Below, in pieces: positions 4,900-47,546 of a DNA stretch of 64,000 bases. Source of the DNA: an uncultured delta proteobacterium (GTDB taxonomy: Bacteria; Desulfobacterota; Desulfomonilia; UBA1062). Below the pieces are notes generated by a model. The model searched no databases and had not been told where the DNA came from. It saw only the letters and a list, made by a program, of their open reading frames with translations. The stretch is taken from positions 96,001 through 160,000 of the forward strand of contig CAWAUM010000007.1 of assembly GCA_963785235.1 (NCBI GenBank). Direction: 5' to 3'. Within the stretch, counting starts at the first letter, position 1; every line of letters begins with the position of its first letter. The position numbers and the translations under genes are program-made.

Positions 4900-7777
4900 A
4901 TGCAGTTTGGGCAGAGGGAAACAGATGAAAAGAGCCTGAAAAGACGTCTCCGTTTTGAAGAGATGCTCTCGGAGCTTTCTGCGCGGTTCATGGCAACTAC
5001 GTTCGATCAGGTCGACAGCGAGATCGAAAATGCCTTGAGGCAGATCATGGAATTCTTCCAGGTCGATCTGTGTGCCCTGCTGGAAGTCCACGAGGACAGG
5101 TCCTTTGCCAGAATCTCCCATGCCGTGTACGGCGAAGGCGTTGAGCAGATACCGAAAGACATAAACCTCGTAGAACTGTATCCGTGGACCTACCAGAAAC
5201 TGATGCGGGGGGAGCTTATCAACATCACCCGGATGGAAGATTATCCTGAAGAAGCCCTGATAGACAGGCAATCTAATTTGGCAATGGGTACAATATCCAG
5301 ATTGGCCTTTCCTGTGGCCGTTGACGGCGGCATTTCGAGAATAATCACTATACATCAGAGACACCGGCATCAGGCCTGGCCCGAAGAGTATATCCCCCGG
5401 CTGCGGCTGCTGGGTGAGATCCTTGTCAATGCCCTGGAGCGCAGGCAGGACAGGGTGCACTTGGAGGAACAGCTCAGCCTTTGAGATGCTCCTGGCTGAG
5501 ATCTCGGGGCGTTTTGTCAACCTGAGAGCCGACCAGGTAGACAGCGAAATAGTAGATGCCCAGCGCCGTATCTGTGAATGCCTGGGGCTGGATCTTTCCG
5601 CGCTCTGGCAGTGGTCGATGGAAACTCCCCGCATCCTCAGAATGACTCACATATACCGACCCCTTGGAGGCCCGCCGCTTCCCGAACCCATGTATGCCCA
5701 TGAGCATTTTCCCTGGTGCCAGCAGGAACTGGAGGCAGGCAGGATAGTTATCGTTTCAAGCATGGAGGATGTTCCGGCCGAGGCGGCCCGTGACCAGGAG
5801 GTCTGGCGCCAGCTCGGCATCAAGACCTCGTTGACCTTCCCGCTATCGCTAGGGGGAGGCCGATCATCGGTGCATTGTCCTTCAATGACATGCTGGCCGA
5901 ACGCACCTGGTCGGAACCGATCATTGCAACGTCTTCAACTGGTCGCCCAGATATTCAGCAATGCGCTCGCCCGCAAGCAGACCGAAACCGCGTTGCGTGA
6001 AAGCGAGGCGCGTCTGAGTCTGGCTACTGAAGCCGTGGGGGCAGGCCTGTGGATCATGGATGTCGACACGAAAAAGGTATGGGTTTCGCAAAAGAGCCGG
6101 GAGCTGTTTCATTTTGCCCCGGATGAAGAGATTACCTATGAAAGTTACTTCAGAGTGATCCATCCCGAGGACAGGGACCGGGTCAACCAGGAGGTGCAGC
6201 ACGCACTCCGGTCCGGAGAGCATCTTCTCTGCGATTACCGGATCGTGCTCCCTGATGGAAGCATCAGATGGATTGTGGCCCGCGGACAGCGGTATCTGAA
6301 ATCGACCGGAGAGCCGGATCGCATCATGGGCCTGTCGTTTGACATAACCGAGCGCAAAGGAATGGAGCTGCAGCTGAGCGAGTCACAGACCACGCTCGCT
6401 TCACTGGTCAACTCTACCTCCGATCTGATCTGGTCGGTGGATGCAGAGCGCTTCGGTCTTCTCACCTTCAACCGCGGCCTTACCGAATACTTCTTCAATA
6501 ACCATGGCATTCATACCAAGGTCGGCATGCGTCCGGAAGACCTCCTGCCTGCAGGCTATGCTCAGCAGTGGCAGAAGTTCTATCAACAAGCTCTGGAGAA
6601 GGGATCTTTCACAACAGAGTACCGGGCGTCCGGGGGAAGCCGGGTGCTGCGGCTGAATATCAACAGCCTCAGGGACGGTGATAATATGTTCGGCGTATCG
6701 GTATTCGCCCAGGACATCACCGAGCGCAAGCAGTTGGAGGAGCAGCTCAGAGAACGTCTCAATGAGATCGAGGTGCTCAAACAGCGGCTCGAAAGAGAGA
6801 ATATCTATCTGCGCGAGGAGGTCAGACTCCTGGTTGAGCATACAGACATCGTGGGGCAAAGCCTAGCCATGAAGAGGGTCCTGAGCCAGGCGGAACAGGT
6901 TGCAAAAACAGATGCTACGGTTCTCCTCACGGGGGAAACCGGAACAGGAAAAGAGCTGCTTGCCCGGGCGATCCACAGCATGAGCACCAGGAAAGACCGG
7001 ACCCTTGTAGTGGTCAACTGCGCCTCGTTGCCGCCCACCCTCATCGAGAGCGAACTCTTCGGCCGGGAAAAGGGCGCCTTCACCGGTGCGCTCACCCGGA
7101 TGACCGGGCGTTTCGAGCTTGCCGACGGGTCTACCCTGTTCCTGGACGAGATCGGGGAACTCCCCCTTGACCTGCAGAGCAAACTGCTCAGGGTGCTTGA
7201 ACAGGGGCAGTTCGAACGGCTGGGGTCCAGCAGGACCACCAAGGTCAATGTCCGCATCATTGCCGCCACCAACCGGGACATCGAGCAGGCGGTGAAGGAC
7301 GGCACATTCAGACGGGACCTTTTCTATAGGCTGAATGTGTTTCCCATTGTGATTCCGCCGCTGCGTGAGCGTGCCGGAGATATACCTCTCCTGGTCCGAT
7401 CGATCGTCAGGGAGTTTCAGAAGAGGATGGGGAAAGAGGTAGAAAGCATCCCGAAGAAGACCATGGAGGCCCTGCAATCCTATTCCTGGCCGGGTAACGT
7501 CCGGGAGCTCAGGAATATGATCGAACACGCCATGATCCTGAGCACGGGTAAAACACTGGATGTACACGTGCCCAAGCGTGCACCTTCAGAAACAGACACG
7601 ACCGGCAACCTCCAAGATATGGAGCGGATACATTTGATGACCGTGCTGGAGAAGACCGGCTGGCGCATTTCCGGACAGGGTGGCGCTGCCGAGGTTCTTG
7701 GTCTGAAGAGAACAACCCTCCAGGCGAAGATGAAGAAATTAGGCATCAAGCGTTCCAGCAAGCCAATGCCGCACTAA
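4900..7777 (+). CDS. Sigma54-dependent transcriptional activator (2x GAF, 2x PAS, AAA+, Fis HTH); frameshifted near 5480 and 5855-5920
   Basis: [36 protein letters not shown] and C-terminal [21 protein letters not shown]. Two similar GAF repeats precede PAS domains. Confidence 0.9.
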
Positions 7778-7921: not shown

Positions 7922-8176
7922 ATGAAACGTACATGGCAGATACAAGAAGCGAAGAATAAACTGAGCGAGGTAGTTGATGAAGCAGTCCATCATGGACCAC
8001 AGGTTATTACCAAGCGGGGTGTTGAAGTTGCTGTTATGCTATCCTATTGTGAATATCGTAAAATGATCTCCTTGCAGAAGAAGCTCTCCACTTTCTTTCG
8101 CGAATCTCCTCTTGTGGGGGTCGACCTCGATCTCAGTCGAGATAGGACCGGAATGCGTGAGGATGTCTCGCTATGA
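7922..8176 (+). CDS. Phd/YefM-family antitoxin
   Basis: WQIQEAKNKLSEVVDEA...PQVITKRG signature; overlaps the toxin start (ATGA). Confidence 0.9.
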   Translation: MKRTWQIQEAKNKLSEVVDEAVHHGPQVITKRGVEVAVMLSYCEYRKMISLQKKLSTFFRESPLVGVDLDLSRDRTGMREDVSL

Positions 8177-8592
8177 AGTATCTTCTCGATACGTGTGTAA
8201 TCTCAGAACTGGTCGCTAAAAAACCCAATCCCCTAGTACTCAACTGGATAGACAGCATAGACCCGGACAGCGCTTATCTGAGTGTGATCACCATAGGAGA
8301 AATAAGAAAGGGGATAGAGAAACTACCTGACTCGAGGCGTAAAACCACTCTCAATTCATGGCTGATCGAGGAGCTGATGGCTCGATTTAGTGGCAAGATC
8401 CTCCCAATTGATGCTGAAGTTGTGCTCATGTGGGGTCAGCTGATAGGTTCTCTGGAATCAGATGGGAAGAAAATGGCAGCAATAGATTCTCTTATAGCGG
8501 CCACAGCACTTTATAACCACTGCAGCTTAGTAACAAGGAATGAAGCTGACTTCAAACATACCGGCATAGCGATTATTAATCCTTGGGAGTAA
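8173..8592 (+). CDS. vapC: VapC-family PIN-domain toxin
   Basis: YLLDTCVISE, ITIGEI, DSLIAATA, LVTRNEADF, INPW PIN motifs. Confidence 0.9.
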   Translation: MKYLLDTCVISELVAKKPNPLVLNWIDSIDPDSAYLSVITIGEIRKGIEKLPDSRRKTTLNSWLIEELMARFSGKILPIDAEVVLMWGQLIGSLESDGKKMAAIDSLIAATALYNHCSLVTRNEADFKHTGIAIINPWE

Positions 8593-8716
8593 CTGTGGCT
8601 TCTGACAAAGTCGTTGCCTGTATGTTCTCCGAATTCAGATTGCGATAAATCATCGGTTTTTTGAACCCAAGGATCAATAAGAAAACTCCCGAGATTCAGC
8701 GCAGAGGAAACTTATC

Positions 8717-8781
8717 TGAAGAAATTAGGCATCCAGCGTTCCAGCAAGCCTATGCCGCATTAACGTCTATTGCCCATATAT
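8717..8781 (+). repeat. Direct repeat copy 2 of the activator 3' end
   Basis: tgaagaaattaggcatccagcgttccagcaagcctatgccgcattaacgtctattgcccatatat; compare with 7731..7796. Confidence 0.85.
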
Positions 8782-8884
8782 TGGCAGATAATCTCGCTCC
8801 TTCTGCTTTGTCCGTCACACCTTTTTTTATTGAAATCCTCATAACAACAGCGCCTTGACAACATAATCGTCCTCCGCCTTTTTC

Positions 8885-8901
8885 TTGGCCCGTATCTGGC
8901 A
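8885..8901 (+). promoter_or_regulatory. Putative sigma54 -24/-12 promoter for the GRE cluster
   Basis: TTGGCCCGTATCTGGCA has GG(8887-8888)-N10-GC(8899-8900). It lies 120 nt upstream of the first cluster gene, downstream of a near-palindrome TGCCCATATATTGGCA (8771-8786). Confidence 0.6.
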
Positions 8902-9020
8902 ATCTCTTTTCTGTGACATTGAAAACATCCATGAATTAATTTCGATGAAGGCATTGAGGAGTTTCTACCCGGAAGAAGCACAGGCGATCCTTCAGCAATA
9001 TCATAAAAAGGGAGAAGCAT

Positions 9021-9359
9021 ATGATCCTCGCAACCATTAGGATGGCGATACCACCCCAAAAGCGAGCTGAGGCATTGAAAATCATCAGATTGATAGCTGA
9101 TCGATGCAGTGACGATACCGGCTGTCTCGGGTTCCACCTCTATGAGGACCTGCAGGAAAAAAACGTCATCATGCTCGAAGAGGTCTGGAAGGCCCAGGAA
9201 GACCTGGACCTTCATCTTCGCTCGGACGAATACCACAACCTGCTCATGGTTCTGGAAATGGCAGTCAAACAGCCCGAGATCAGGTTCGACACCATCTCCA
9301 GTTCCACGGGCATCGAGACCATTGAAAAGGCAAGGAGCAATGCGAGACAAATATTCTGA
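9021..9359 (+). CDS. Antibiotic biosynthesis monooxygenase (ABM/YgiN-like) protein
   Basis: 112 aa; GCLGFHLYEDL...MLEEVWKAQEDLDLHLRSDEY pattern of the dimeric alpha-beta barrel ABM family. Confidence 0.8.
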   Translation: MILATIRMAIPPQKRAEALKIIRLIADRCSDDTGCLGFHLYEDLQEKNVIMLEEVWKAQEDLDLHLRSDEYHNLLMVLEMAVKQPEIRFDTISSSTGIETIEKARSNARQIF

Positions 9360-9450
9360 CATCACCCTCCTTGGAGGGGTGGCTGTGGTGAAATTACTTC
9401 ACGTATTTAGCGAAGTGAAAATATAAGTCAATAATAGGAGGAACATCATT

Positions 9451-10647
9451 ATGGCTAAGGAAACAGAGAAGATTAAAGAGACAACTTTCAAAAACACGAA
9501 ACTGAACCTTGTGAAGCTGGATTGGAAAGAGGTTTACTACACCAACTGTCCGCTGGTGTCTGCCAGCAATGTGGATGAAGGCCTGGGCTTGACCAAGAAG
9601 GAGTTCAAGAAGATCGGCGTGAAGTTTGCCTACATGCGTTCGACCCCTGAAACCGATTGGTATCCCCACTACATTCACAATCAGGAAAATCTTATCCGCT
9701 TCGGCGGTTTGTTTCCGCCCATCGAGGTTCACGCGGACATCCGCCGGACCCGGCTGCTGGGGGTTACGCAGATGCCGGCAGAAGGCGGTGTCATGATGGT
9801 GCGCGCCAAGGACGACATCTACCGGATGGTCGATCTGAAGGGCAAGAAGATCGGCATTTCCAAGAGCATGAACAAGATCAAGAACGACTGGTGGCGCATC
9901 CAGGAGCACCAGGGTATCGAGCTCATGCTCCGGATGAACGGCATGACCATGGACGACATCGAGCTCGTCGAGTTCCCTTACGCGGACGACTGGTATAACG
10001 ATCCGGCGATGATGGTCGCAACCATGGACCTCTCGATTGATCTGTGGCTGAAGCGTGACCACAAGCGCGACTTGGCCTTCCGTCCACTGGAAACCGCACT
10101 GGAAAAGAGGATCATCGATGCGATGTACATGCAAACCAAGCCGCTCCAGCAAGTCTCCGAGGCGACGGGCAAGTTCGCGGCGATCGAGGACCTCTCCCGC
10201 TATCCGGACTGGCGTTTGCAGGTCGCCAACATCCCCGCGGCCATTACGTGCACCGACGTCATGGCCAAGCAGCACCCCGAACTCGCCGTCACGTTCATGA
10301 AAGGCATGATCCGCGCCGGGCGCTGGGCCAACGAGAACAAACGCGCCGCGGCGGAAATCCTCGACCAACAGACCTTCTACAGAGACATCGAGCACACCTA
10401 CCAGGGAATCAGGGACGTGGACTTGGTGCCCAACCTGTCACCACTCAACCTGGCTGCTGTCGAGATCGGCAAGAACTTCATGCTGAGCCACGGCTACATC
10501 AAGAACGACTTCGATGTGCAGAAGTGGGCCGCGCCGGAGTTCCTGGAGAAGGCAGCCAGAGAACTGCTGGAAGAAGAATGGAAGAAAAGAACCACAGCAA
10601 AACTTCCCAAGACGGCTGCGCCGCTTACGGGAGAACGGCTCGGGTAG
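9451..10647 (+). CDS. DszB-like protein (desulfinase family; periplasmic-binding-protein fold), no signal peptide
   Basis: YTNCP (C33), PHY (H73), RFGG (R83, G86) and RTRLLGVT..VRAKD....DLKGKKIGIS parallel the DszB motifs YSNCP, H60, R70-FGG and RTRLLGIT. The N-terminus is charged, not a signal peptide. Confidence 0.75.
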   Translation: MAKETEKIKETTFKNTKLNLVKLDWKEVYYTNCPLVSASNVDEGLGLTKKEFKKIGVKFAYMRSTPETDWYPHYIHNQENLIRFGGLFPPIEVHADIRRTRLLGVTQMPAEGGVMMVRAKDDIYRMVDLKGKKIGISKSMNKIKNDWWRIQEHQGIELMLRMNGMTMDDIELVEFPYADDWYNDPAMMVATMDLSIDLWLKRDHKRDLAFRPLETALEKRIIDAMYMQTKPLQQVSEATGKFAAIEDLSRYPDWRLQVANIPAAITCTDVMAKQHPELAVTFMKGMIRAGRWANENKRAAAEILDQQTFYRDIEHTYQGIRDVDLVPNLSPLNLAAVEIGKNFMLSHGYIKNDFDVQKWAAPEFLEKAARELLEEEWKKRTTAKLPKTAAPLTGERLG

Positions 10648-10752
10648 TCGGGAAGACGCTCGGCACAGGGTGCACGTGCGAGGCAACTGAAGAATCAGCC
10701 ATAATCGCCGACCCGGTGAAGCCAAAATAAAACTGATGAAGGAGGAAACATA

Positions 10753-13185
10753 ATGGAAAAGGCAAAGGATGCAAAGAAGATTTCCACAGGCCGCGTCAAG
10801 GCCGACAAAGACCGGATCGACCGGCTGAAAGAACAACTCAGGAGCACCCCTGCCGAGGTTGATTTTGAGCGGATCAGGATCATGGAGGAGGTTTACGCGG
10901 CCACTCAGGGCGACCAGAATATCATGCGTCGAGCCAAGTTCTATGCCACCCTGCTGGAGCGGAAGAAGATCTACATCGACGACAACTGCTTTGTGGGCAG
11001 CATGGCCGGCACCGTCAACGGCATCTACACGTATCCGGAATGGAACATCGATTGGATGAAGGACGATAATACCGTCGAGAAGTGCAAGGATCCGGTGGAC
11101 AAGAAGGCGAACCAGTGGGCACTCGACTACTGGGACAAGCGCGCCCTGAAACCCCGCACCCTGGAGATCTTCGAGAAGAAGTATGGTTTCGATCCGAAAC
11201 CCTGCTATGAGTCCGGCTTTGTCGTCAGTTTCTTTGACTGGCCGGGTGGTGGCGGCAATCTGAACTACCCCCGGATTTACAACCATGGGCTGGCCGCCAT
11301 GATCAAGGAGGTCGAGGAGCGGCAGGCGGCCCTCGACATGCGGCTGCCCAATGCCAGCAAGCTCTACTTCTATGAAGCCAGCCTCATCGTCATGAGGGCC
11401 ATTGTGCGCCTGGCTCATCGCTATGCCGAGCTGGCCCGGGAAATGGCGAAAAAGGAAAAGAATGAAACCCGCAAGGCAGAGCTGATTGCCATCGCCGAAA
11501 CCATGGAACGAGTTCCCGAGCATCCGGCCCGGAACCTGAGAGAGGCCATCCAATGCCACTTCTTCTGTCACATTTGTGCGGAGCTCGAGCAGGTTGGCTG
11601 CGGTTACTCCGAGGCCTATCTGGGCCAGAACCTTGAGCCCTACTATCAACGCGACAAAGCGGCGGGTCTGGTCGATTACGAACAAGCGACGTTCATGTTC
11701 CAGAATCTCGTGATCAAGCTGAACGAGATCGGCTATTACTTTGGAGAGAAGGTCGCCCTGCAGAACTCGGCCGACCTCGGGCAGAGCGTCTCCCTGGGAG
11801 GCTTTACCGAGGATGGGGAGGATGCCACCGCGGAAATGGACTATGTGGTTCTGGATGCATGCAACTATCTCCACCTGCCGCAGCCTCCGCTGACTTGCGT
11901 CTACACGGAGAGGATGAGCGGCAAATTCCTCGAGAAGGTCCTGGATGTCATCGGCACCGGTATCGGCATGCCTCAGTTGGTAAACGGCAATGTGATGATC
12001 AAACGGGCACTCAATCTATTCGGTGACTCCAAAAAGGGCATCACCCTCGAAAAAGCCAGGCGCACCTGCATCGGCGCATGTGTGGGTTCTTACCCCCCCT
12101 ACGAGACCGGTCACCCGGTGGAAGGCCAGCCCAACCTGGGCAAGGTCATCGAGCTGGTGATGAACAATGGCTTCGATCCTCGCACCAAGAAGCAGGTCGG
12201 ACCCAAGACCGGTGATCCCGAGACCTTCAAAACCTTCGAAGAACTCTACGCGGCATTCCAAAAGCAGATCGATTTCAATGAAGAGGTCCTCCGCCGGGGT
12301 GCCTGGATCGCCAGCATGTTGTGCGCCGACTTCCTCCCGGTTCCTTGGCGCTCGCTCCTGACCGGGGGCTGCATTGAAACGGGCACCGAGGTGTGGAACG
12401 GCGGGGCCAATTACTACACCGTTGCCCAGATTGTGGTGGGGGGCATCGACGCGGCCAACTGTCTCATGGCGGTGAAGAAACTGGTCTACGACGACAAGAA
12501 GATCACCATGGCCGAACTCAAGAAAGCCCTGGCCGCCAACTGGGAGGGGGAATACGAGAAGATTCGGAAGCTGTGTTACGAAGCTCCCAAGCACGGCAAC
12601 GACATCCCTGAAATGAACAGGATGGCGTACAGGGTGTACGAAAGCATCTTCAAGGCTTTCAACAATGTTGACGGCGGCGGCAACTACCTCAGCAAAGACA
12701 TCAAATCAGCGCCGGATGCCTATACCAAGAGCATCCACAACCTGATGGGTATGGTGACCGGGGCTCTGCCCAACGGCAAGAGAGCCGGAGTGGCACTCAC
12801 CGATGGAAGTCTGTCGGCCATGCCGGGAACCGATGTCAGCGGTCCTACCGCGTTGGTGATGTCTGCGGCGAAGGCTCAGGATGCCATCAAGTACACCGCA
12901 ACCCACATGAACATGAAACTCCCGCCTGATCAGCTGAAGACACGCAAGGGCCGGGATAATGTGCTGCGTCTGGTCAAAACCCTGTTTGATAACGATGGCT
13001 ATCACATCCAGTTCAACGTCCTGGATACCAACATCCTCAGGGATGCGCAGAAGCACCCGGAAAACTACCGTGACCTCGTGGTCCGGGTAGCCGGTTTCAG
13101 TGCCTTCTTCACCGCACTGGCTAAGGGCGTACAGGACGAGGTCATTGAGCGCACTTTGCAGTCGTTTGACGGTCAGATGTGCTGA
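10753..13185 (+). CDS. Glycyl radical enzyme of unknown function (PFL2/GRE superfamily)
   Basis: C-terminal HPENYRDLVVRVAGFSAFF glycyl-radical loop (G781), HIQFNV, GALPNGKRAG, and Cys loop CIGACVGS (C443). A cognate activase lies downstream. Confidence 0.93.
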   Translation: MEKAKDAKKISTGRVKADKDRIDRLKEQLRSTPAEVDFERIRIMEEVYAATQGDQNIMRRAKFYATLLERKKIYIDDNCFVGSMAGTVNGIYTYPEWNIDWMKDDNTVEKCKDPVDKKANQWALDYWDKRALKPRTLEIFEKKYGFDPKPCYESGFVVSFFDWPGGGGNLNYPRIYNHGLAAMIKEVEERQAALDMRLPNASKLYFYEASLIVMRAIVRLAHRYAELAREMAKKEKNETRKAELIAIAETMERVPEHPARNLREAIQCHFFCHICAELEQVGCGYSEAYLGQNLEPYYQRDKAAGLVDYEQATFMFQNLVIKLNEIGYYFGEKVALQNSADLGQSVSLGGFTEDGEDATAEMDYVVLDACNYLHLPQPPLTCVYTERMSGKFLEKVLDVIGTGIGMPQLVNGNVMIKRALNLFGDSKKGITLEKARRTCIGACVGSYPPYETGHPVEGQPNLGKVIELVMNNGFDPRTKKQVGPKTGDPETFKTFEELYAAFQKQIDFNEEVLRRGAWIASMLCADFLPVPWRSLLTGGCIETGTEVWNGGANYYTVAQIVVGGIDAANCLMAVKKLVYDDKKITMAELKKALAANWEGEYEKIRKLCYEAPKHGNDIPEMNRMAYRVYESIFKAFNNVDGGGNYLSKDIKSAPDAYTKSIHNLMGMVTGALPNGKRAGVALTDGSLSAMPGTDVSGPTALVMSAAKAQDAIKYTATHMNMKLPPDQLKTRKGRDNVLRLVKTLFDNDGYHIQFNVLDTNILRDAQKHPENYRDLVVRVAGFSAFFTALAKGVQDEVIERTLQSFDGQMC

Positions 13186-13232: not shown

Positions 13233-13314
13233 AAGTTCCAAGATGAGTACCAAGGCTCTGCAGGGCGCGAGGCTATTGATGCCTATACAGGAAAATTCAC
13301 ACAGGAGGATTATT

Positions 13315-14490
13315 ATGAGTAAAGAAATAGGTCATGCCAGTTTTCAACGACGCATTGCCATCAATGTGGGTGCCGGCTACGTGCCCGGTATAAATGCTGT
13401 GATAATGGGCGCAAGCCTTGCTGCGAACAAACTGGGATGGGAGATAGTCGGCATCATGGACGGGTTTGAGGGGCTGTTGCACCGGCCTAGCTACCCCAAC
13501 GGCGGGCTGGTGTCACTCAGCCCGCAAATGATTGAGAACCTGGATCCGTCTGCCGGGGGAATCCTGGGCCAAGCGTTGCGGATCGATCCGTTTCATGTCC
13601 GTCGCGTAAATGAAGACGACATGGTAGAAGAAGTCGACGTATCCGATGAACTGATTAGAATACTTCAGGACGAGCAGATCGACGCATTGATTTCAGTTGT
13701 TGGGGGTCAAGGATTAAGTATTCTTTATAAGCTCCATCGTAAAGGGCTCAATACGGTTTGCATCCCCAGATCGATTGAGAACGACATCGCTGCCACAGCG
13801 GTCTCCTTCGGGTTCAACAGCGCCCTGAGTTTTACTATCGAAATGCTGGATCGGGCTCTTCAGGCGGCCCGGGCAGCCCGCAAAATCGCGGTAGTGGAGG
13901 TCTTGGGAGAACAGGCCGGTTGGATTGCATTACAGGCCGGCATTGCAGTTTGTGCCGATGTAGTGCTGATTCCCGAAGTTCCCTGCGATCTGAATGCGGT
14001 TGCATCCAGATTGAAAGAAAAGATGCGATTCAGAAATCATTACGGACTTGTGGTGGTGGCCGAAGGGGCGAAGTTTGTCGATAATACGCAAAGCCAGGCG
14101 GATCCCTCCTCCCTGAAAGCTACTCTCTCGCCGCTGGCAACGGGTGAGGCAAGTGAACATGTCATTTCGCAATCAGGCCAGGCCGCCGCGACAGTGGCAA
14201 CCAGGTTGCAGTTACTGATCGCCGAGGAAATCTATCCGCTGGTAATTGGTCCCTGGGTCAGGGGTGGTACCCCCACTGCTGTCGACCGGCAACTGGGGAT
14301 GGCCTACGGCGCCGGAGCCATTCAGGCGCTGAAAGCCGGGAAAAACGGCGCAATGGTTGCTTTTAATCCACCAGCCATCGAATTTCTGCCTTTGGCAGAA
14401 GCGATCAATAAAGTCAGAACGGTGCCCACAGACAGCCTGTTCGTGAAAATCGCCCAATCGCTCGGCATCTTTCTAGGGAGGGAATTATGA
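13315..14490 (+). CDS. 6-phosphofructokinase (PfkA)-fold protein with degenerate catalytic motifs
   Basis: PfkA architecture throughout ([46 protein letters not shown]), but GAGYV, PRSIEND and LGE replace GGD, PKTIDND and MGR. RBS aggagga before ATG 13315. Confidence 0.8.
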
Positions 14491-15450
14491 AAAAACAAAA
14501 CATCAACCCCTCCGATATAACAGGCACAGTGCTGAATATCCAACGATATTGCAGCCACGACGGTCCGGGCATCCGGACAACGGTTTTTCTCAAGGGCTGC
14601 TCTTTGCGCTGCAAATGGTGCGGCAATCCCGAAAGCATTAGCCTGAAGCCGGAAATGTCCTACGACTCCAGGAAGTGCACCGGCAAGAAGTGCGGCCTCT
14701 GCCTGAAGCCGCCGTTTCCTGAAGGCGCCTTCTATTTTGTGGAGGGGGATGATGACCAAAGTAAAAGTCAACTGGCACCTGGCCATGGACATAAATAACG
14801 AACTGGTTTCGCTCTGCCCGACCGGTGCGCTCGAAATGTTCGGCAAACGGATGACCGTCAACGAGGTGCTCGACGAGGTGGAGAAGGATGCCTCCATCTA
14901 CCGCAGTACCGGTGGCGGCATGACGATAAGCGGCGGTGAAGTCATGCTGCAACCCGACTTTGCGGCAGCTTTGCTGCAGGAAGCACACAATCGCGGCCTC
15001 AATACGGCTATAGAAACAGCCTGCAATGCGCCATGGTCCTTCCTTGAAAAAGTACTTCCCCACGTGGATACGATGCTTCACGACAACAAACTGATGAATT
15101 CGGAACGGCACAAAAAGTGGACCGGCGTAGGCAATGAAAGAATTCTGGCGAACTTCAAAAAAGCCTACGAAACGTTCCCCCATGTGGAGTTTATTACCCG
15201 CACACCGCTGATTCCCGGCGTAAACGCCGATGAAGAGCACGTCCGGGCCGTGCTGGCATTCATCAAGCCATATAAAAACGTGATCGACTATGAGCTCTTG
15301 CCCTATCACCGCTTTGGTCTGGGCAAGTATGAACTGTTGGGAGAGGTGTATGAACTGGATGATTACAAAACGCCGTCTGCCGACCTGGTCGCGCACCTGC
15401 AGGCCATCATCGACGAAGCCTTTGGCCGCAGCGGGCCGCAAACAAAATAG
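14487..15450 (+). CDS. Glycyl-radical enzyme activating enzyme (radical SAM), frameshift near 14750
   Basis: [26 protein letters not shown] (CxxxCxxC), a ferredoxin-like insert, [15 protein letters not shown] and LLPYH. Pieces at 14487..14798 and 14737..15450. Confidence 0.92.
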
Positions 15451-15463
15451 AAAGGAAACAATC

Positions 15464-16720
15464 ATGGCCAGACAGAAAGAGAAAAAAAGCATGAAAACTG
15501 AAGGCCGCCAAACACCTCCGAAGAAGCCGGGAGCCGGGAACGGTTCGGGCCGGACAGATGACATTTACGAGCGCCTGGCGGACGCGCTGGACGCGCTTCC
15601 GAGTGGCTTTCCCAGGACGAAATCCGGGGTGGAAATGAAACTGATCAAGATGGCGTTTACGCCCGAGGAGGTAGCCCTTGCCGGTCAGTTGACCCGCTTT
15701 CCCGAGACCGCTGCCGAGATCGCCAAACGGGTCGGCATGGATGAGGCTGACGTAACCGTGTTGTGCGAGAGCTTGATCCCCAGGCGCCTGGTACGTCTCG
15801 ACTCGCCCGGGTATGACATGGCCGGTCAAGATCAGGGTGATGGGGCGAAGAAGTACCGGCTGGGCATGTTCCTGGTTGGCTGGTATGAAGCCAATATGCG
15901 GCTGCTGGGTAAGGAATTTGCCGAGCTCTTCGAGCAATATGTTATTGAAGGCGGCGGTGAAAGAATACTTGCTCCTCGGCCTGGGGTTCTTGGTGTTGTT
16001 CCCGTTCGGGGGTCACTATCGCCAGAACAGATCAAAGTGATGGAACCCCATCTTGATATCGACGCGCATTTCAAACGGCACGAACGATTTGTTGTGTTTG
16101 GCTGCGTATGTAAAAGGGAGCAGGAATTATTGCATGGCCACAGCTGCGATATGCCGATGAAACGCTGCGGTTTTGTAGGCGTCCCACCCCAGACGCCACT
16201 TTCGGAAAACGTGCTTGACCGGGAAGAGGCGGACAAGCTTCTTCGTGAACTGGAGGACATGGGACACGTTCACCTCGCGGCCTATGGATACGTCATGGGC
16301 GCGGAGACTCCTCAGTTTGTCGGAGGGTGTAACTGCTGCGGCTGTTGTTGCGGGGTCCTTCACAGCCAGAAACTCTCCGGCATTTCGGAAGCGGCACAGC
16401 GTTCGAACTACCGCGCCGTCATTGATTCGGAAAAATGCATTTCCTGCGGTCTGTGCATCAAGCGTTGCCCGGTGGACGCCATCTTCGAGGGCCCGAAGCG
16501 CTTGCCCACAGGGCCTCTCTGTGCGGCCGTGGAATTGGAGCCCGGCAAGTCCGAGGTGGACCGGGCCAAGTGCATCGGCTGCGGCGTGTGCGTGATCAAA
16601 TGCCCGACGAATGCGATCGAACTTGTGCCGGTATCGAAAGAAGAATGGTTCCATACTCCTGCCAGCATGGCGGAATGGGAAGAGATGCGCCTTGCGTTTC
16701 TGGCAGCGGAAAAGAAGTAA
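15464..16720 (+). CDS. Multi-Cys 4Fe-4S binding protein with N-terminal HTH-like region
   Basis: GCVCK, GCNCCGCCC, CISCGLCIKRCP and CIGCGVCVIKCP motifs; RBS aaagga. Confidence 0.85.
   Translation: MARQKEKKSMKTEGRQTPPKKPGAGNGSGRTDDIYERLADALDALPSGFPRTKSGVEMKLIKMAFTPEEVALAGQLTRFPETAAEIAKRVGMDEADVTVLCESLIPRRLVRLDSPGYDMAGQDQGDGAKKYRLGMFLVGWYEANMRLLGKEFAELFEQYVIEGGGERILAPRPGVLGVVPVRGSLSPEQIKVMEPHLDIDAHFKRHERFVVFGCVCKREQELLHGHSCDMPMKRCGFVGVPPQTPLSENVLDREEADKLLRELEDMGHVHLAAYGYVMGAETPQFVGGCNCCGCCCGVLHSQKLSGISEAAQRSNYRAVIDSEKCISCGLCIKRCPVDAIFEGPKRLPTGPLCAAVELEPGKSEVDRAKCIGCGVCVIKCPTNAIELVPVSKEEWFHTPASMAEWEEMRLAFLAAEKK
16613..16689 (+). repeat. 77-bp direct repeat copy 1 (FeS protein 3' region)
   Basis: Matches 19408..19484 with 3 mismatches; weaker similarity extends upstream to about 16541/19336. 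Confidence 0.85.
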
Positions 16721-16787
16721 AGCCTGGGCAAACAGGCGGGATGGAAGAACGGCTTCGTTTCGCGAAGGGAATAGGAGGAGAAGCAAG

Positions 16788-18089
16788 ATGAACACAACCG
16801 ACTTGATTACGGCGGAAGTACTGGCCGGGCGGCTCAAGATGGCCGCCGAAGGCATCAAGCAGAAGCCCGGCTTAATGAAGTCCGCCATAGGCTATATGGA
16901 ACTGGTTTATAAGTACGTGGAGCGGATCGTGACGGCCAAAGAAAAGGGCAAATATGTGGTTACCCATGGCACCCAGCAGCCCCTCGAAATTTACGAAGCT
17001 ATGGACATCGTGTGCCTCTTCAACGAGTTCTGGGGTGTCATCTCGGATGTCGTGAACACGGATTCCGTCCCCGCGGCCATGAATATTTCGGCTTCGACCG
17101 GCACACCGCAGGAGGTCTGCTCCTTCTTCCGGAACATGGACGGCCTGCTGCATGCCGGGAAGTGGCCGCATACGGACATGTTTGTCTACGCCACCTCCTC
17201 GTGCGATAACGTTAAGGCGTTCCACACGCTGGGCCGGCGATACGGCATCCCCAGTTTCGGCATGGAGCGGCCCTATTACCCGTTCACACCCCATGCGATG
17301 GAACACTGGAAGAACGAGCACAAGCGTTTGATCGCCTTCCTGGAAGAGCAGACGGGGAAGAGGATGGACTATGACCGTCTCAATGAGACGTTACGCCTCT
17401 CTTACCGTCTTACCGAGATCGCCTGCGAGATCGACAAGCTGGTAGCCCATGTCCCAACTCCCATGTCCCCCGAATGCTTTGGGGGAGTACTGCTGGCGAT
17501 CCGCCTGATGTGCGGGACCCAGGAGGCTGTGGACTACCTGGAATCGCTGAAGGCGGAACTCGAGGAACGGGTGTCCAAGGGCATCGCCGCCGTCGAGCCG
17601 GAACGCTTCCGGGTGATGTGGAGCAGTTTCACCCCGTTCTGGGACCCGGGAATCATGGCCTTCATGCAGGAGAAGTACGGAGCGGTCTCGGTGTGCGAGG
17701 TGCTGCAGCGCTGGCGCGGGGAGGCGAACTGGATGCTGGATCCGGATGATCCGTTGGGCAACCTCGCTTACAAAACTCAGGTCGCACCCGGAAACTGTCA
17801 ATACTCGCCCTCCTTAGATTGGGCCGGGGAAGTCGTCGCGCAGGCCCGCAAATACAAGCCGGACGTGGCGATCTTCAACAACAACCGGGGCTGCAAGCAG
17901 GCTGCGGGCTTGGAACCAATCATCAGGGACGAGCTGCTGCGTCAATGCGGCGTGCCGACCCTCACGCTTGCCGTGGATGTGATTGATGCAACTTTTACCA
18001 GCCGGGCAGAGGTCGAAAGGCAGTTGGACGGCTTTTTTGAAATGATCGAGGGAAGCGAAGCTTACCAGGAAAGGAGGGCAAACGCATGA
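16788..18089 (+). CDS. 2-hydroxyacyl-CoA dehydratase / class I benzoyl-CoA reductase family subunit (alpha-type)
   Basis: EVCSFFR, SSCDNVK and RGCKQ cluster cysteines; LIAFLEEQTGKRMDYDRL; GVPTLTL..D. Confidence 0.85.
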   Translation: MNTTDLITAEVLAGRLKMAAEGIKQKPGLMKSAIGYMELVYKYVERIVTAKEKGKYVVTHGTQQPLEIYEAMDIVCLFNEFWGVISDVVNTDSVPAAMNISASTGTPQEVCSFFRNMDGLLHAGKWPHTDMFVYATSSCDNVKAFHTLGRRYGIPSFGMERPYYPFTPHAMEHWKNEHKRLIAFLEEQTGKRMDYDRLNETLRLSYRLTEIACEIDKLVAHVPTPMSPECFGGVLLAIRLMCGTQEAVDYLESLKAELEERVSKGIAAVEPERFRVMWSSFTPFWDPGIMAFMQEKYGAVSVCEVLQRWRGEANWMLDPDDPLGNLAYKTQVAPGNCQYSPSLDWAGEVVAQARKYKPDVAIFNNNRGCKQAAGLEPIIRDELLRQCGVPTLTLAVDVIDATFTSRAEVERQLDGFFEMIEGSEAYQERRANA

Positions 18090-19231
18090 ACCCCCAACTG
18101 CAAGTTCTGAACGAAATGCGGAAAGCGACCTCTCCATTCCCGGAGAGCGTAACCGTCAAGGACTGGAAAGCCTCTGGCCGAAAGGTGATCGGCTGTGTCA
18201 ACCCCTACGTCCCGGAGGAGATCATCCACGCGGCCGGGATGCTTCCATTCAAGATCACCGGTGACAACGAGCCGGTCGAGATGCAGGGGGCCGAGGCCTA
18301 CATCCTCTCCAATACCTGCTCCTACATTCGCACCTGCTGGCAGCTGCAGCTCGACGGCAAGTACGGTTTCCTGGACGGCCTGGTCTTCTCCAACATGTGC
18401 GACCAGGATAAGCGGCTGTACAGCGTGTGGGAGTACTATAAGAAGCTTCCCTACATGGACATCCTCTACGCGCCGCGCAAGCGCGACGAGGAGGCTGTCA
18501 AGCTGTACCTGGCCGATCTCGAGGACTTCAGGGACAGGTTCTCGCTGTACCGGCTGAGCAGGATCACCGACCGGGACGTCGCGGACGCCATCCGCGTCTA
18601 CAACCGGGGACGTGAGCTCATGCATCGTCTCTACGAACTGCGCAAGCGTGATCGCCCACCTGTGACAGGTGCCGAGGCCCTGGAAGTAAGCAAGGCTGCC
18701 GCACGCCTGCCGCGTGAGCGTTTCAACGAGCTGATGGAGCAACTGCTTGACGAGATCCAGCGCACCGGGCGCGAGATCAAGAAGGCCAGGCGCCTGATGG
18801 TCATCGGCAACGATATTCACAACACCAACCAGGTCGCCGCGTTCGAGGAAATGGACGCGCTGGTCGTCGTGGACGAGATGAATTGCGGCATCCGGCAAGC
18901 CCTGGGCCAGGTGGACACCAAGATGCCGCCGATGGAGGCTCTGGCCCGCTACTACGTGATGGGCCGTCCGGTCGACATGCACAACTGGAATTCCGACGGG
19001 CGACTCGCGTTCATTGGCCAGATGGTTGAACAATACAGGGTTGACGGGATTGTGTCCGAGATCGTTCGCTTCTGCACCTACAACGGCTGGGACAAGTTCG
19101 ATCTCAAGAAGCAGATGGAACAGCGCGGCATTCCCATCCTGGATATCGACCTCGAGTACGGCCATCCGGCTGGAGCGCAGGTGAAGACCCGCGCCGAGGC
19201 GTTCATGGAGATGCTGGAAAGCCGAGCCTGA
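18086..19231 (+). CDS. 2-hydroxyacyl-CoA dehydratase / benzoyl-CoA reductase family subunit (beta-type)
   Basis: PYVPEEIIHAAG, NTCSYIR, NMCDQ, RFCT and QVKTRAEAFMEML; ATGA overlap with the preceding gene. Confidence 0.88.
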   Translation: MNPQLQVLNEMRKATSPFPESVTVKDWKASGRKVIGCVNPYVPEEIIHAAGMLPFKITGDNEPVEMQGAEAYILSNTCSYIRTCWQLQLDGKYGFLDGLVFSNMCDQDKRLYSVWEYYKKLPYMDILYAPRKRDEEAVKLYLADLEDFRDRFSLYRLSRITDRDVADAIRVYNRGRELMHRLYELRKRDRPPVTGAEALEVSKAAARLPRERFNELMEQLLDEIQRTGREIKKARRLMVIGNDIHNTNQVAAFEEMDALVVVDEMNCGIRQALGQVDTKMPPMEALARYYVMGRPVDMHNWNSDGRLAFIGQMVEQYRVDGIVSEIVRFCTYNGWDKFDLKKQMEQRGIPILDIDLEYGHPAGAQVKTRAEAFMEMLESRA

Positions 19232-19597: not shown

Positions 19598-21284
19598 ATG
19601 AAAGTAATAATTGTCGGCGGAGTGGCGGGTGGCGCGTCGTGTGCGGCGCGCCTGCGGAGATTGGATGAAAAGGCGGAAATACTCATGGTGGAACGCGGGC
19701 CGTATGTCTCCTACGCGAACTGCGGGCTTCCCTACCATATCAGCGGCGTGATCGAAAAAGAGGCATGCCTCCTGGTGGCCACGGAAGCGACGTTCCGTGA
19801 GCAGTTCGCAGTGGATTGCCGCACGAACTGCGAGGCGGTCGGGATTGATGCGAAAAAGAAGACCGTGGAGCTGAAGAACCACGCCACCGGCGAGGTGTCC
19901 ACCGAGCACTACGACAAGCTCGTGCTTTCTCCCGGGTCGGCGCCGATCCGTCCGCCACTGCCGGGTATCGACCTCCCGGGGATCTTTTCGGTGCGGACCG
20001 TGCCGGACGCCCGAGACATACGCGCCTGGATTGGACGCAACGACGTGCCGGACCATTCGGAAACAGGCTACCAGGCCGTGACGCCAGCCAAGCGCGCGGT
20101 GGTGATCGGCGGCGGATTCATCGGACTTGAGATGGCCGAGAACCTGGTGCACCTCGGGCTCGAGGTCACCGTGGTTGAGATGCTCGATCAGGTCATGCCC
20201 CCGCTTGATCCGGAAATGGCACGCCTGGTCGAGTCCCACCTGGAGAAGCATGGTGTCCGCCTGGCGCTGGGCGACGCGGTGGCCGGCTTCAGGCAGGCGG
20301 AGCATGGTTCGCTCGAGGTGCTCACGAAATCAGGGAAAACGCATCCGGCGGACATCGTGATCATGGCCATCGGTGTGCGTCCTGAGACTGAGCTGGCAAA
20401 GATGGCCGCCATCGAGATCGGGGAGCGCGGGGGGATCCGCGTGGACGAGCATATGCGCACGAGCGACCCGGATATTTTCGCCGTGGGAGATGCCGTCGAG
20501 GTAAGGGATTTCGTTACAGGCCAGTGGTCGCTCATCCCGCTTGCAGGGCCTGCGAACCGTCAGGGCCGCATCGCGGCTGATGTGATCGTCGGGCGCGACT
20601 CGCGTTACCGGGGCACGCAGGGCACTTCCATCTGTCTCGTCTTCGATGCAGCGGTGGCCTCGACCGGAGTCAGTGAAAAGATCCTTATCAGACTGGGCGA
20701 CACGGATTACGAAAAGATCTATCTCTACCCGAACTCGCACGCAGGGTATTACCCGGGCGCCAAGCTGCTCGCAATAAAAGTCCTGTTCCGGAAATCCGAC
20801 GGCCGTCTCCTGGGCGCGCAGGTGCTCGGCCAGGACGGCGTTACCAAGCGGATCGATTCCTTTGCCATGGCTATCCAGATGGGATGCACCATTTACGACC
20901 TGGAAGAGGCCGAGCTGAGCTACGCGCCCCCGTTCGGCAGCGCCAAGGACCCGGTCAACTTCGCCGGGATGGTGGCCGCTAATATCTTGCGCGGCGACAT
21001 GCCGGTGTGCCCACTGGGATGCGGCGCAGGGAGGGTTCCTCCTCGATGTGCGCAATCCGCCCGAACTGGCCGTTGAGCAGGCGCCGGGTGTGGTCAACAT
21101 ACCGCTGCCGGAGCTCCGTGCACGCCTGGGCGAGCTGCCCCGCGAGCGCGAGATTTTCGTGATCTGCCGCTCGGCCCAGCGCGCCTACTATGCGACGCGC
21201 ATCCTGCTGCAGAACGGGTTCAAGGCCCGCAACATCTCCGGCGGCATGCTGGTGCGTTCGCACCTGGCGGTGGGATGGAAATAA
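19598..21284 (+). CDS. CoA-disulfide/persulfide reductase with C-terminal rhodanese domain, frameshift near 21010
   Basis: GGVAGGASCAARLRR, SYANCGLPY redox Cys, GGGFIGLE, YYPGA, YAPPFGSAKDPVN; rhodanese domain VICRSAQRAY in the next frame. Confidence 0.9.
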
Positions 21285-21307
21285 ATAGTGAACGCAAGGA
21301 GCACAAT

Positions 21308-21817
21308 ATGACTGAACAAAATCTTCCCAAAGGAAAACAGACGGTGCTGGGGCTCTATGTGACGGCAAAGGAGGCCTACGAGAAGTGGAAGGCCGAGCCG
21401 GACAGGGTGATGATCCTCGACGTACGCACACCGGAAGAGTACCTCTTCATCGGCCACCCGGCCATGGCCTGGAAGATCCCCATCGCGGCCCAGGAGTATG
21501 AGTGGGACGCCGGCAAGGGGAAGTTCCCCATGAAGCTCCTCACCGATTTCGTTGAGCGGGTGAGCTCCGTGGCCGGGCCAGATGACACGATCCTCGTCAC
21601 GTGTCGCTCCGGCGGCCGCAGCGCCATTGCCGCCAACCTGCTTGCCCAGGCCGGGTACAAGAAGGTCTACAACATCATCGACGGCGTGGAAGGGGACGCG
21701 GTTGAAGATCCTGACAGCGTCTTCCTGGGTCAGCGCCTGAAGAACGGATGGAAGAACTCGGGATGTCCGTGGACATACAAGCTCACGCCCGACAGACTGC
21801 TGCTTCCAAAAGCATGA
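21308..21817 (+). CDS. Rhodanese-like sulfurtransferase
   Basis: ILDVRTPEEY..IGH, active-site loop CRSGGRS, YNIIDGVEG, GWKNSGCPW. Confidence 0.88.
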   Translation: MTEQNLPKGKQTVLGLYVTAKEAYEKWKAEPDRVMILDVRTPEEYLFIGHPAMAWKIPIAAQEYEWDAGKGKFPMKLLTDFVERVSSVAGPDDTILVTCRSGGRSAIAANLLAQAGYKKVYNIIDGVEGDAVEDPDSVFLGQRLKNGWKNSGCPWTYKLTPDRLLLPKA

Positions 21818-21941: not shown

Positions 21942-22816
21942 ATGGACATTATGACTTGGTTCAACATCACAGTGGTCGTGTTTACCGTGGCTAATCTGAT
22001 GGCCGGGGGCCTTGAGTGCGATCTGAAAGAAGCGGTCAAGTTGTTGAAAAGCCCCACGCTCTTCGTGCCGACCCTTTTTTGGGGCTGGGTGGCCGGGCCG
22101 GCCCTTGCCTGGCTGATCATCCAAGTGCTTCCGCTGTCGGCGGGACATGCCGCCGGGCTGATGTTGTGCAGCTTGGCGCCCATTGCGCCGTTCCTGCCGC
22201 TGGCGGCGATGAAGGCCCGTGGCGACATGACCTTCACCGGAGCCTACATCCTGCTGGGGACGGTCGTTACCGTCTTGTTGATGCCGCTGATGGCACCTCT
22301 GCTGATCAAGGGGCTGACCTTGAGCACCTGGCCGCTCGCGAAGCCGCTCATCATATTGGTGCTGATTCCTTTGCTGCTTGGCATTGTCATCCGGTTTTAC
22401 AAGCCGGCAGTGGCCGCCAAGATATTTAAACCGGTCAAGAAAACCGGCGGCATCTTCCTGCTGCTCTGCCTGGGGACGTGCCTGTGGATCTACGGCATGC
22501 AAATGCTCGGCACGGTGGGCAGCTTTGCCACGGCCGCTTGGGTCATCTTCATGGTCGTGATGGCCGTGCTGCCGTATCTGATTGGCTTCGGCATGAAACA
22601 GAATCAGCGCAGCGTCATGGCAATCGGCCAGAGCTCGCGGAATATTTCGGCCGGGTTCGTGGCGTTCTTTGGTATTACCAACCCGCCCGAGGGGATGTTC
22701 CTGATGGTTGTGCTGGTGGTTCCGCTGCACGTCATCATCGGGCTCTTATCGGTGCCGCCCATATTCGCCAGGCTGGCCGGCAAGACCGTGAAACCGCTGA
22801 GGAAGTTGCGGCATGA
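21942..22816 (+). CDS. Bile acid:sodium symporter (BASS/SBF)-family transporter; frameshift near 22790
   Basis: About 9 hydrophobic helices; LAPIAPFLP..AMKARGD and SSRNISA motifs. The probable true end is ...ETAEEVAA* at 22816. Confidence 0.75.
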
Positions 22817-47436: not shown

Positions 47437-47546
47437 GTGCATTGGGTTTACGGAGGAAACCCAACAACCAACTGATGGTGGACGGCTTGCGTACAAGAAA
47501 TCCGTTGTCGGTGACGGAACAAAGACTGAAGCAGGGGAGGAATACC

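Follow-up and report, generated by a model that had tools for sequence, protein, structure and literature searches.

The reading frame at positions 9451-10647 of the forward strand very probably encodes an enzyme of the DszB type and not a binding protein, as judged from its sequence relationships and its modeled fold, the activity itself being a prediction. The overall explanation that we consider probable on balance is that of a cytoplasmic, cofactor-free member of the DszB family, placed in a distinct and uncharacterized clade and acting as a putative sulfinate desulfinase. In what follows, the window is the whole 64 kb stretch of DNA that was analyzed.

Results

Relatives and loci compared

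Of 7000 candidates in our protein search, 3024 proved to be relatives; the best 120, at 76-94% identity, are the close homologues referred to below. At 50% identity, 922 clusters matched the protein. A scan of GTDB genomes yielded at least 552 confirmed stretches, from which the best 80 loci (69-93% identity) were used. These loci cover 15 named phyla, with 25 loci in Bacteroidota, 16 in Planctomycetota, and 11 in Pseudomonadota, and seven have no phylum assigned.

Gene, start codon, and predicted localization

The gene, its active-site codons, and the genes upstream of it are as follows:

4900-7777, forward strand: GAF/PAS sigma-54-dependent activator, read in two frames; 16 of the best 80 loci have related regulator genes
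9021-9359, forward strand: small ABM-domain protein, directly upstream of the DszB-like gene; 5 of the best 80 loci
9436-9441, forward strand: Shine-Dalgarno sequence AGGAGG, supporting the ATG at 9451
9451-10647, forward strand: DszB-family protein with a type II periplasmic-binding-protein fold, 398 amino acids, signal peptide absent
9541-9549, forward strand: T31-N32-C33, corresponding to S25-N26-C27 of DszB, that is, the catalytic Cys and the hydroxyl residue of the His-Ser dyad (roles from the available text of PMC6100217)
9667-9669, forward strand: H73, aligned with H60 of DszB
9697-9708, forward strand: R83-F-G-G86, aligned with R70-x-G-G73 of DszB, the RXGG motif

The reading frame is intact, and 9451 is the earliest start codon past an in-frame stop, so that an N-terminal extension of the protein is impossible. 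A hydropathy heuristic describes the N-terminus as hydrophilic (maximum 11-residue Kyte-Doolittle mean of 0.66 in the first 45 amino acids); the same heuristic detects nothing signal-like in 117 of 119 close homologues, and the other two have Tat-like signals. Second copies with Tat-like signals are present in loci L040, L044, and L063. Export thus appears to occur in the clade, but rarely. No sigma-70-like promoter was found in 8550-11000, and the matches to a loose sigma-54 pattern (131 against 111 expected, with no exact match upstream) were not informative.

The databases name this protein 'ABC transporter substrate-binding protein'. Its only Pfam match is a marginal one to NMT1/THI5-like (22.2 bits), the NCBIfam model SsuA_fam scores 52.9 bits, below its cut-off of 163.5, and the ESM Atlas clusters of a 93%-identical homologue are either nameless or labeled 'putative ABC substrate-binding'. 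The sequence contains C33 (in YTNCP), H73, R83 and G86 (in RFGG), and RTRLLG at residues 99-104.

Kinship with DszB

DszB was the sole match under an E-value of 0.01 when 177,635 PDB sequences were searched with phmmer (E = 1.2e-12), and in that alignment H73, R83, and G86 fall on H60, R70, and G73, with RTRLLG identical in both proteins. A profile of 34 homologues, picked to cover 24-86% identity, matched nearly the whole length of DszB with an E-value of 1.4e-42, compared with 9e-11 to 8e-10 for the best true binding proteins (SsuA-type), and set the Cys of YxNCP (C33) on C27 of YSNCP in the DszB entry 2DE2. With an AlphaFold2 model built from an 81-sequence alignment (pLDDT 91.5), Foldseek placed DszB first (E = 5.6e-20), as did VIA-align among 48,161 chains (Z 30.3, rmsd 3.0 A, 320 residues, 24% identity), with an SsuA-like protein as the runner-up at Z 24.8. 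The structural alignment begins at residue 26 of the DszB-like protein and residue 20 of DszB, the same offset as between C33 and C27. The model superposes on DszB over the 320 residues, and the identity between both proteins is 21-24%.

The active-site residues are preserved well beyond the closest relatives. C33 is kept in 119 of the 120 best close homologues (the single miss is an N-terminally truncated record), in all 89 locus proteins, and in all 30 distant relatives; H73 is kept in 120 of 120, 89 of 89, and 29 of 30, respectively, and R83 and G86 in every row of the close, locus, and distant sets. All the close and locus rows that cover position 31 have Thr or Ser there. In the available text of PMC6100217, the catalytic cluster of DszB consists of C27, S25, H60, R70, and G73, the favored mechanism transfers the C27 proton to the ring carbon with release of SO2, and the arginine R70 of RXGG is said to have been assumed structural; the available part of PMC12168087 gives identical DszB active-site residues except S25. 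All five residues of the cluster have counterparts here (C33, T31, H73, R83, and G86). Being conserved family-wide, the Cys-His-Arg-Gly set argues for common ancestry and probable catalysis, but does not name the substrate.

These results agree with the preliminary description of this DNA in several respects. It had given the positions of C33, H73, R83, G86, and RTRLLG, all of which are correct, and had considered the signal peptide absent, as the hydrophilic N-terminus and 117 of 119 homologues suggest within the limits of the heuristic. It had also proposed a correspondence of C33, H73, R83, and G86 with C27, H60, R70, and G73, which phmmer and the profile reproduce. Its proposal of a DszB-type identity for this putative enzyme is upheld by DszB being the top match in both sequence and fold (Z 30.3 over 320 residues), by the full active-site set, and by the near-complete conservation of C33, H73, and R83 in the three sets of homologues.

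A distinct clade with a charged lid

In a quick maximum-likelihood tree of 120 rows, built without DszB and with a deep structure that is unsure because of long branches, the window protein sits in a clade of 90 rows (SH-aLRT 100, stem 0.84), apart from the oxygenase-linked relatives on plasmids. The dszB genes of Rhodococcus and Gordonia are absent among the plasmid matches listed (the best 50 of 87 and the best 60 of 88). In the segment aligned with the DszB lid, the clade carries the near-invariant charged residues D180, R202, H204, D207, and R211, which the distant relatives do not have; these clade-specific residues suggest a different substrate, more polar than hydroxybiphenyl sulfinate. 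Many carriers of the gene belong to aerobic or facultative groups, such as Flavobacteriaceae, Algoriphagus, Methylococcus, and Rhizobium.

Absence of ABC importers and oxygenases

A motif scan of the 64 kb window detected no ABC ATPase, and tblastn with three ATPase and six permease queries detected neither an ATPase nor a permease. The same three ATPase queries, which matched three of three control loci, identified no import-ABC ATPase in the best 80 loci; their lone match there was a weak one to an exporter-type gene in L074. Permeases were also not found in these loci, although this is a weak test, each of the six queries having found its own locus only. Queries for DszA-, DszC-, and SsuD-like proteins and for sulfite oxidase gave no match in the window or in any of the best 80 loci; the first three were rhizobial and sphingomonad proteins, not those of Rhodococcus, and the search covered linked loci only. 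Likewise, Pfam detected no import-ABC or luciferase-like family in 26 cluster representatives and 107 further proteins, the latter comprising a few cluster representatives and a hand-picked share of the 239 unclustered candidates within 4 kb. On plasmids of Sphingobium and Sinorhizobium, by contrast, relatives with about 25% identity have monooxygenases and ABC importers as neighbors, and in one case a sulfite oxidase too. The exception closer to our protein is a Rhizobium copy of 62% identity, which comes after an amino-acid ABC operon that has its own binding protein. The earlier statement that no permease or ATPase lies nearby therefore stands for the window and the best 80 loci, with the exporter-type match and the weak permease test as qualifications; oxygenases of the DszA/DszC type were found in neither.

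Recurring sulfur-handling neighbors

Downstream in the window, the following genes were identified:

16611-19231, forward strand: two HgdA/HgdB subunits (2-hydroxyacyl-CoA dehydratase/benzoyl-CoA reductase-like); none of the 80 GTDB loci
19598-21269, forward strand: CoA-disulfide/persulfide reductase with a C-terminal rhodanese domain (CoADR-RHD/Npsr/CoAPR type), frameshift near 21008; 39 of the best 80 loci
21275-21817, forward strand: single-domain rhodanese with active loop CRSGGR; the commonest partner, 45 of the best 80 loci
21942-22815, forward strand: sodium/bile-acid symporter family (SBF) transporter, 3' part apparently frameshifted and end approximate; 16 of the best 80 loci

A SulP gene is present in 32 of the best 80 loci and immediately upstream of the DszB-like gene in 10. 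Rhodanese, CoADR-RHD, and SulP occur in 10 phyla each, and at least one of the three was identified in 67 of the 80 loci and in 45 of the 48 loci of at least 20 kb. In these 48 long loci, rhodanese is found in 33, CoADR-RHD in 27, SulP in 21, nitroreductase and crotonase in 18 each, and the glycyl radical enzyme cassette in 17. An outer-membrane barrel (28 of 80), a ferredoxin-nitroreductase (26), and a crotonase (25) are also recurrent. The last two are the tightest-linked neighbors; the crotonase lies within 500 bp in 19 loci and is the commonest immediate downstream gene (18 of 80). General island cargo is less frequent (AI-2E in 13, GH63 in 12, and sulfatase in 11 of the 80). It is important to note that the loci form a modular island rich in unrelated cargo, and that the co-occurrence of rhodanese, CoADR-RHD, and SulP may partly reflect shared island cargo, the counts coming from the loci alone with no genome-wide background rate.

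The CoADR-RHD proteins keep the SYANC motif and nearly always the rhodanese-domain Cys, and the best PDB matches of the reductase are CoADR-RHD, Npsr-type, and CoA-persulfide reductase entries (E-values from 1e-168 to 1e-138). A CoADR-RHD gene also adjoins the rhizobial copy of 62% identity. A signal-like N-terminus is present in 27 of 50 partner rhodaneses, so these partners may act in another compartment. The HgdAB subunits of the window are 68% and 78% identical to those flanking a DszB-like gene on a Rhizobium leguminosarum plasmid (strain ATCC 14479, NZ_CP030763.1), where the gene order is hgdA, hgdB, DszB-like, activase, activase, SBF, rhodanese, rhodanese, and sulP. The DszB-like protein of that strain (WP_112908153.1) shares 69% identity with ours. 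The window unites the glycyl radical enzyme cassette, the HgdAB pair, and the sulfur-handling genes.

Three apparent gene fusions were rejected as probable assembly artifacts: a SulP and DszB-like fusion (P0271, one match among 4885 longer-protein candidates), whose middle looks out of frame; a DszB-like/CoADR chimera (P0058), which is not taken as fusion evidence; and a single DszB-like/nitroreductase read-through in L073.

An accessory glycyl radical enzyme cassette

The DszB-like gene is followed in the window by a glycyl radical enzyme (GRE) and its associated genes:

10753-13185, forward strand: glycyl radical enzyme of an uncharacterized clade, Cys loop GACVG (C443) and Gly loop RVAGF (G781); 22 of the best 80 loci
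13243-14490, forward strand: PfkA-fold protein with altered catalytic motifs (END for DND, GAG for GGD, no MGR), accompanying the GRE
14487-15450, forward strand: GRE activating enzyme, radical SAM, split by a frameshift near 14750; mostly a single reading frame in related loci
15290-16720, forward strand: protein with a 2x[4Fe-4S] ferredoxin domain, true start probably past 15290; 15 of the best 80 loci

The split activase of the window is probably an assembly error, since the CoADR-RHD and activator genes are also split and related activases are mostly single reading frames. The cassette of GRE, PfkA-like protein, activase, and ferredoxin recurs at 72-96% identity in 9 phyla. The GRE lies within 10 kb of the DszB-like gene in 22 of the best 80 loci, any cassette gene in 24, and in long loci the ferredoxin-domain protein occurs solely alongside the cassette. 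On the tree, 17 changes are needed to account for the GRE in 23 rows, and strong branches force no fewer than 9 of them; the mean of shuffled trees is 21.5 changes, and one of 500 shuffles was as low. The cassette is a real but accessory partner of the DszB-like gene, its place being taken at other loci by crotonase/nitroreductase or Hgd/Bcr-type modules. The preliminary description had placed the GRE directly after the DszB-like gene; this is true in the window, where it starts 105 bp past the gene, but not elsewhere, as in none of the 22 loci do they lie within 500 bp of each other and the median gap is 4.5 kb. Together with the absence of the cassette from 31 of the 48 long loci and its scatter over the tree, this indicates that the adjacency in the window is a local arrangement, and the idea that the GRE supplies the DszB-like substrate as a general rule is not sustained.

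The GRE itself has 369 relatives at an E-value of 1e-100 or better among 8000 scored, and none close on plasmids, where the best has 33% identity. It falls below all the equivalog cut-offs considered (HypD, IAD, HpsG, CutC, HpfG, HPAD, and PFL), the best being HypD with 488 against 1100 bits. Its Cys loop is GACVG in 121 of 121 rows, and the Glu of the GCVE loop of HypD and CutC is missing. The C-S and C-O lyase GREs use a Glu two residues past the catalytic Cys. C283, H454, E457, Q459, Y657, and K659 are invariant, and from the alignment to HypD we infer that K659 lies near the active site. In the PfkA-fold partner, END replaces DND in 25 of 25 rows, and the GGD and MGR motifs are lost; as the Asp of the DND motif is the catalytic base of PfkA, sugar-kinase activity is doubtful for this partner.

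Discussion

Proposed mechanism

We lean toward the release of sulfite from a sulfinate as the predicted reaction of the DszB-like enzyme. The two lobes would close, in the fashion of DszB, on a sulfinate gripped by R83, G86, and H73; C33, polarized by an H73-T31 dyad, would protonate the sulfur-bearing carbon, and SO2 would depart and hydrate to bisulfite. The substrate would be more polar than hydroxybiphenyl sulfinate. DszB chemistry as modeled needs an sp2 carbon. An aromatic, heteroaromatic, or enoyl organic part is therefore probable and would be in keeping with the crotonase and Bcr/Hgd partners.

The sulfinate would be formed without DszA or DszC. As its source we propose, only tentatively, the removal of sulfane sulfur from a thiosulfonate, the simplest oxygen-free origin that fits the commonest partners. 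The rhodanese would strip the sulfane sulfur (R-SO2-S- to R-SO2-), the CoA-persulfide reductase would convert it to sulfide, and SulP would transport a sulfur oxyanion. Rhodaneses accept thiosulfonates as sulfur donors. The available text of PMC7545470 describes a thiol-dependent removal of thiosulfonate sulfane sulfur, in which thiotaurine gives sulfide and hypotaurine, and in that of PMC13467558 the components of reactive-sulfur homeostasis include CoA-persulfide reductase along with sulfurtransferases and transporters. The GRE, Hgd/Bcr-type, and crotonase/nitroreductase cassettes would be interchangeable add-ons for the carbon skeleton or for an upstream step. The crotonase, the closest neighbor, is unexplained by the thiosulfonate model.

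More doubtful is a wider reading, a widespread oxygen-independent organosulfur route that would end in DszB-like sulfite release and in which interchangeable one-electron modules would make the sulfinate. The modules would be the glutamate-less GRE with its kinase-dead PfkA-fold partner, a Bcr/Hgd-type ATP-driven reductase, or the ferredoxin-nitroreductase, and the substrates recalcitrant aryl or heteroaryl sulfonates, sulfones, sulfonamides, or thiosulfonates.

Alternative explanations

The same machinery might serve another leaving group: CO2 or nitrite would be expelled with the help of a proton, or hydrolysis would take place, and the substrate would be an aromatic or acyl-CoA intermediate handled by the crotonase, nitroreductase, or Bcr-like partners. 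We regard this as rather unlikely. The tight linkage of the crotonase and the ferredoxin-nitroreductase is consistent with it, as is the position of the DszB-like gene on NZ_CP030763.1, between hgdAB and two activase genes; the fold has also yielded the denitrase DnpB (available part of bioRxiv 10.1101/749879) and a decarboxylase (9jp7). However, these enzymes are far more distant from our protein than DszB (Z 14.1 for 9jp7 against 30.3; profile E-value 7e-5 against 1e-42), no residue of the sulfinate-binding set is missing, and the partners found most often are sulfur-handling genes. It also seems unlikely that the adjoining GRE makes the substrate, forming a sulfinate under anoxia by radical C-S or S-O cleavage ahead of desulfination. 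Its clade does recur with the PfkA-like protein and the activase (22 of the best 80 loci, 9 phyla), it matches no characterized GRE above the cut-off, and the invariant Lys659 would be near its active site; against this, the GRE is missing in 31 of 48 long loci, scattered over the tree, and never within 500 bp in its 22 loci, and GACVG lacks the Glu of the C-S and C-O lyases.

An ordinary desulfinase, fed with sulfinate by oxygenases elsewhere in the genome or by non-enzymatic thiol oxidation, with the anaerobic neighbors as mere cargo, is improbable in our opinion. The aerobic or facultative habit of many carriers, the unrelated cargo of the island, and the ABM-domain gene upstream in the window would agree with it, but oxygenase-linked members of the family keep their oxygenases in the operon and the present clade has them in none of the best 80 loci, all its recurring redox partners are reductive or radical, and ABM genes occur in just 5 of the 80. 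A non-catalytic ligand binder, whether an orphan ABC or SulP-associated binding protein or a cytoplasmic sensor, is very unlikely. Its appeal comes from the database name, the weak NMT1 and SsuA matches, the Tat-like signals of a few homologues, the SulP gene immediately upstream in 10 of 80 loci, and the 62%-identity member that follows an amino-acid ABC operon. That operon owns its binding protein, though; the SsuA_fam score is far from the cut-off (52.9 against 163.5 bits), a signal-like segment is missing from 117 of 119 close homologues, the searches of the window and the best 80 loci yielded no import ABC ATPase, and an invariant Cys at the catalytic position of DszB is hard to square with binding alone.

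Comparison with known systems

The closest known proteins to the putative desulfinase are DszB (2'-hydroxybiphenyl-2-sulfinate desulfinase, EC 3.13.1.3; PDB 2DE2, 2DE3, and 2DE4) and BdsA of Gordonia terrae. With DszB it shares the fold, the absence of a signal peptide, S/T-N-C, the His, RXGG, RTRLLG, and WAAPEFL. It differs in its low identity (21-24%), in the charged lid that is strongly conserved in its clade, in the extension of this clade over 15 named phyla at high identity, and in its partners, which are rhodanese, CoA-persulfide reductase, SulP, and radical or reductive cassettes in place of dszA and dszC. With dszA and dszC absent and its activity only predicted, the product is not DszB proper. 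BdsA, another desulfinase of low homology, is likewise in an operon with oxygenases according to the available text of PMC3868597. Uncharacterized DszB-like genes in the sulfur-scavenging clusters of rhizobia and sphingomonads share the Cys-His-Arg-Gly set at about 25% identity, but are not part of the 90-row clade, and their neighbors are flavin monooxygenases, ABC importers, and sulfite oxidase.

The binding proteins SsuA, TauA, and NMT1 share the type II binding-protein fold (Z 18-25) and the weak Pfam NMT1 match; unlike them, our protein is far below the cut-off, has no signal, and has no ABC partner in the loci searched, and its similarity to real SsuA is short and local (E = 7e-5). The periplasmic-binding-protein fold hosts other chemistry as well, such as the denitration by DnpB, 4,5-dihydroxyphthalate decarboxylase, and MqnA/MqnD. 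THI5, MqnA/MqnD, DnpB, and the decarboxylase exemplify catalysis on this fold, often mis-annotated as ABC components; those with PDB entries are structurally much less similar to our protein, with Z 14-16. Finally, the reactive-sulfur-species modules in the available text of PMC13467558 contain the same partner classes (rhodanese, CoA-persulfide reductase, and sulfur-oxyanion transporter), but that text lists SQR, persulfide dioxygenase, and TauE/YeeE with no DszB-family gene. SQR, persulfide dioxygenase, and TauE/YeeE are not among the recurring neighbors of the DszB-like gene.

Significance

In a literature search with subscription papers mostly outside its scope, we found no description of this DszB-like clade or of its gene set, and no paper joining DszB and a glycyl radical. 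The DszB-type desulfinases described in the literature covered depend on sulfinates made by oxygenases. In the present clade, a large one filed as ABC binding proteins (at least 552 confirmed stretches in GTDB genomes, spread over 15 named phyla at 69-94% identity), oxygenases are replaced by sulfur-transfer and reductive or radical partners. The clade also marks an unstudied class of GRE with an unusual active site. Its members are defined, easy-to-express candidates for studying an oxygen-free release of organic sulfur in soils and sediments, including that of a cultured Rhizobium strain with a compact operon, and the clade and its sulfur-transfer context hint at an undescribed route for the breakdown of organic sulfur compounds.

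Rhizobial loci

In the cultured strain Rhizobium leguminosarum ATCC 14479, the DszB-like gene lies in a compact operon (locus L081, plasmid NZ_CP030763.1, 9454-18765), ordered as hgdA and hgdB (2-hydroxyacyl-CoA dehydratase-like subunits), the DszB-like gene, two activases, a sodium/bile-acid symporter family (SBF) gene, two rhodaneses and sulP. The window also holds hgdAB, and a sequence search of it found no gene matching the L081 activases. At L082, which carries the rhizobial copy of 62% identity, a homocysteine S-methyltransferase family gene (10927-11835) is placed directly 5' of the DszB-like gene; by sequence search, a gene of this type was found in none of the 80 GTDB loci (the best 80 of at least 552 confirmed stretches).

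Signals and copy number of the DszB-like genes

Tat-like signals are predicted on DszB-like copies at three loci, L040 (17454-18752), L044 (18674-19993) and L063 (6441-7742), and on two homologous proteins, P0021 and P0022. At these three loci, rhodaneses with signal-like N-termini share the locus with the Tat-like copies. The DszB-like gene is present in three copies at L040 and in four at L071. Redox proteins with a C_GCAxxG_C_C motif are encoded near it at L045 (11283-11813) and L049 (11871-12251).

The GRE cassette and its surroundings

The glycyl radical enzyme (GRE) of the window segment 10753-14490 belongs to an uncharacterised clade whose catalytic Cys lacks a following Glu. In related loci, a PfkA-fold protein with altered catalytic motifs, at times in two copies, is encoded 3' of the GRE; nucleoside phosphorylase-family genes follow the cassette at L014 (6925-7701) and L056 (7537-8313). 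The operon is separated from the sigma-54 activator by a gene pair (7922-8592) that, from its translations, is probably a Phd/VapC-type toxin-antitoxin system.

Genes split across frames in the window:
4900-7777
14487-15450
19598-21269
21942-22815
27640-28498

By comparison with intact homologues, the splits at 4900-7777, 14487-15450 and 19598-21269 are probably assembly indels.

Cargo genes

Reading the translations, we take 41095-43440 to be a fragmented arylsulfatase-like gene, 43696-45153 a DUF1254/DUF1214-like gene and 50602-51831 a radical SAM gene resembling those for anaerobic sulfatase maturation. Related loci repeatedly carry cargo of this sort. The product of 58338-59105 is apparently an amino-acid ABC binding protein; its N-terminus is signal-like, and within the window no ABC transporter genes were found.

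MGH1/GH63-like glycoside hydrolase genes of the window:
23783-26512
47442-50295, split

The 23783-26512 copy adjoins a zinc-dehydrogenase-like and an aquaporin-like gene, and the cargo block of these three types recurs in about 12 of the 80 loci.
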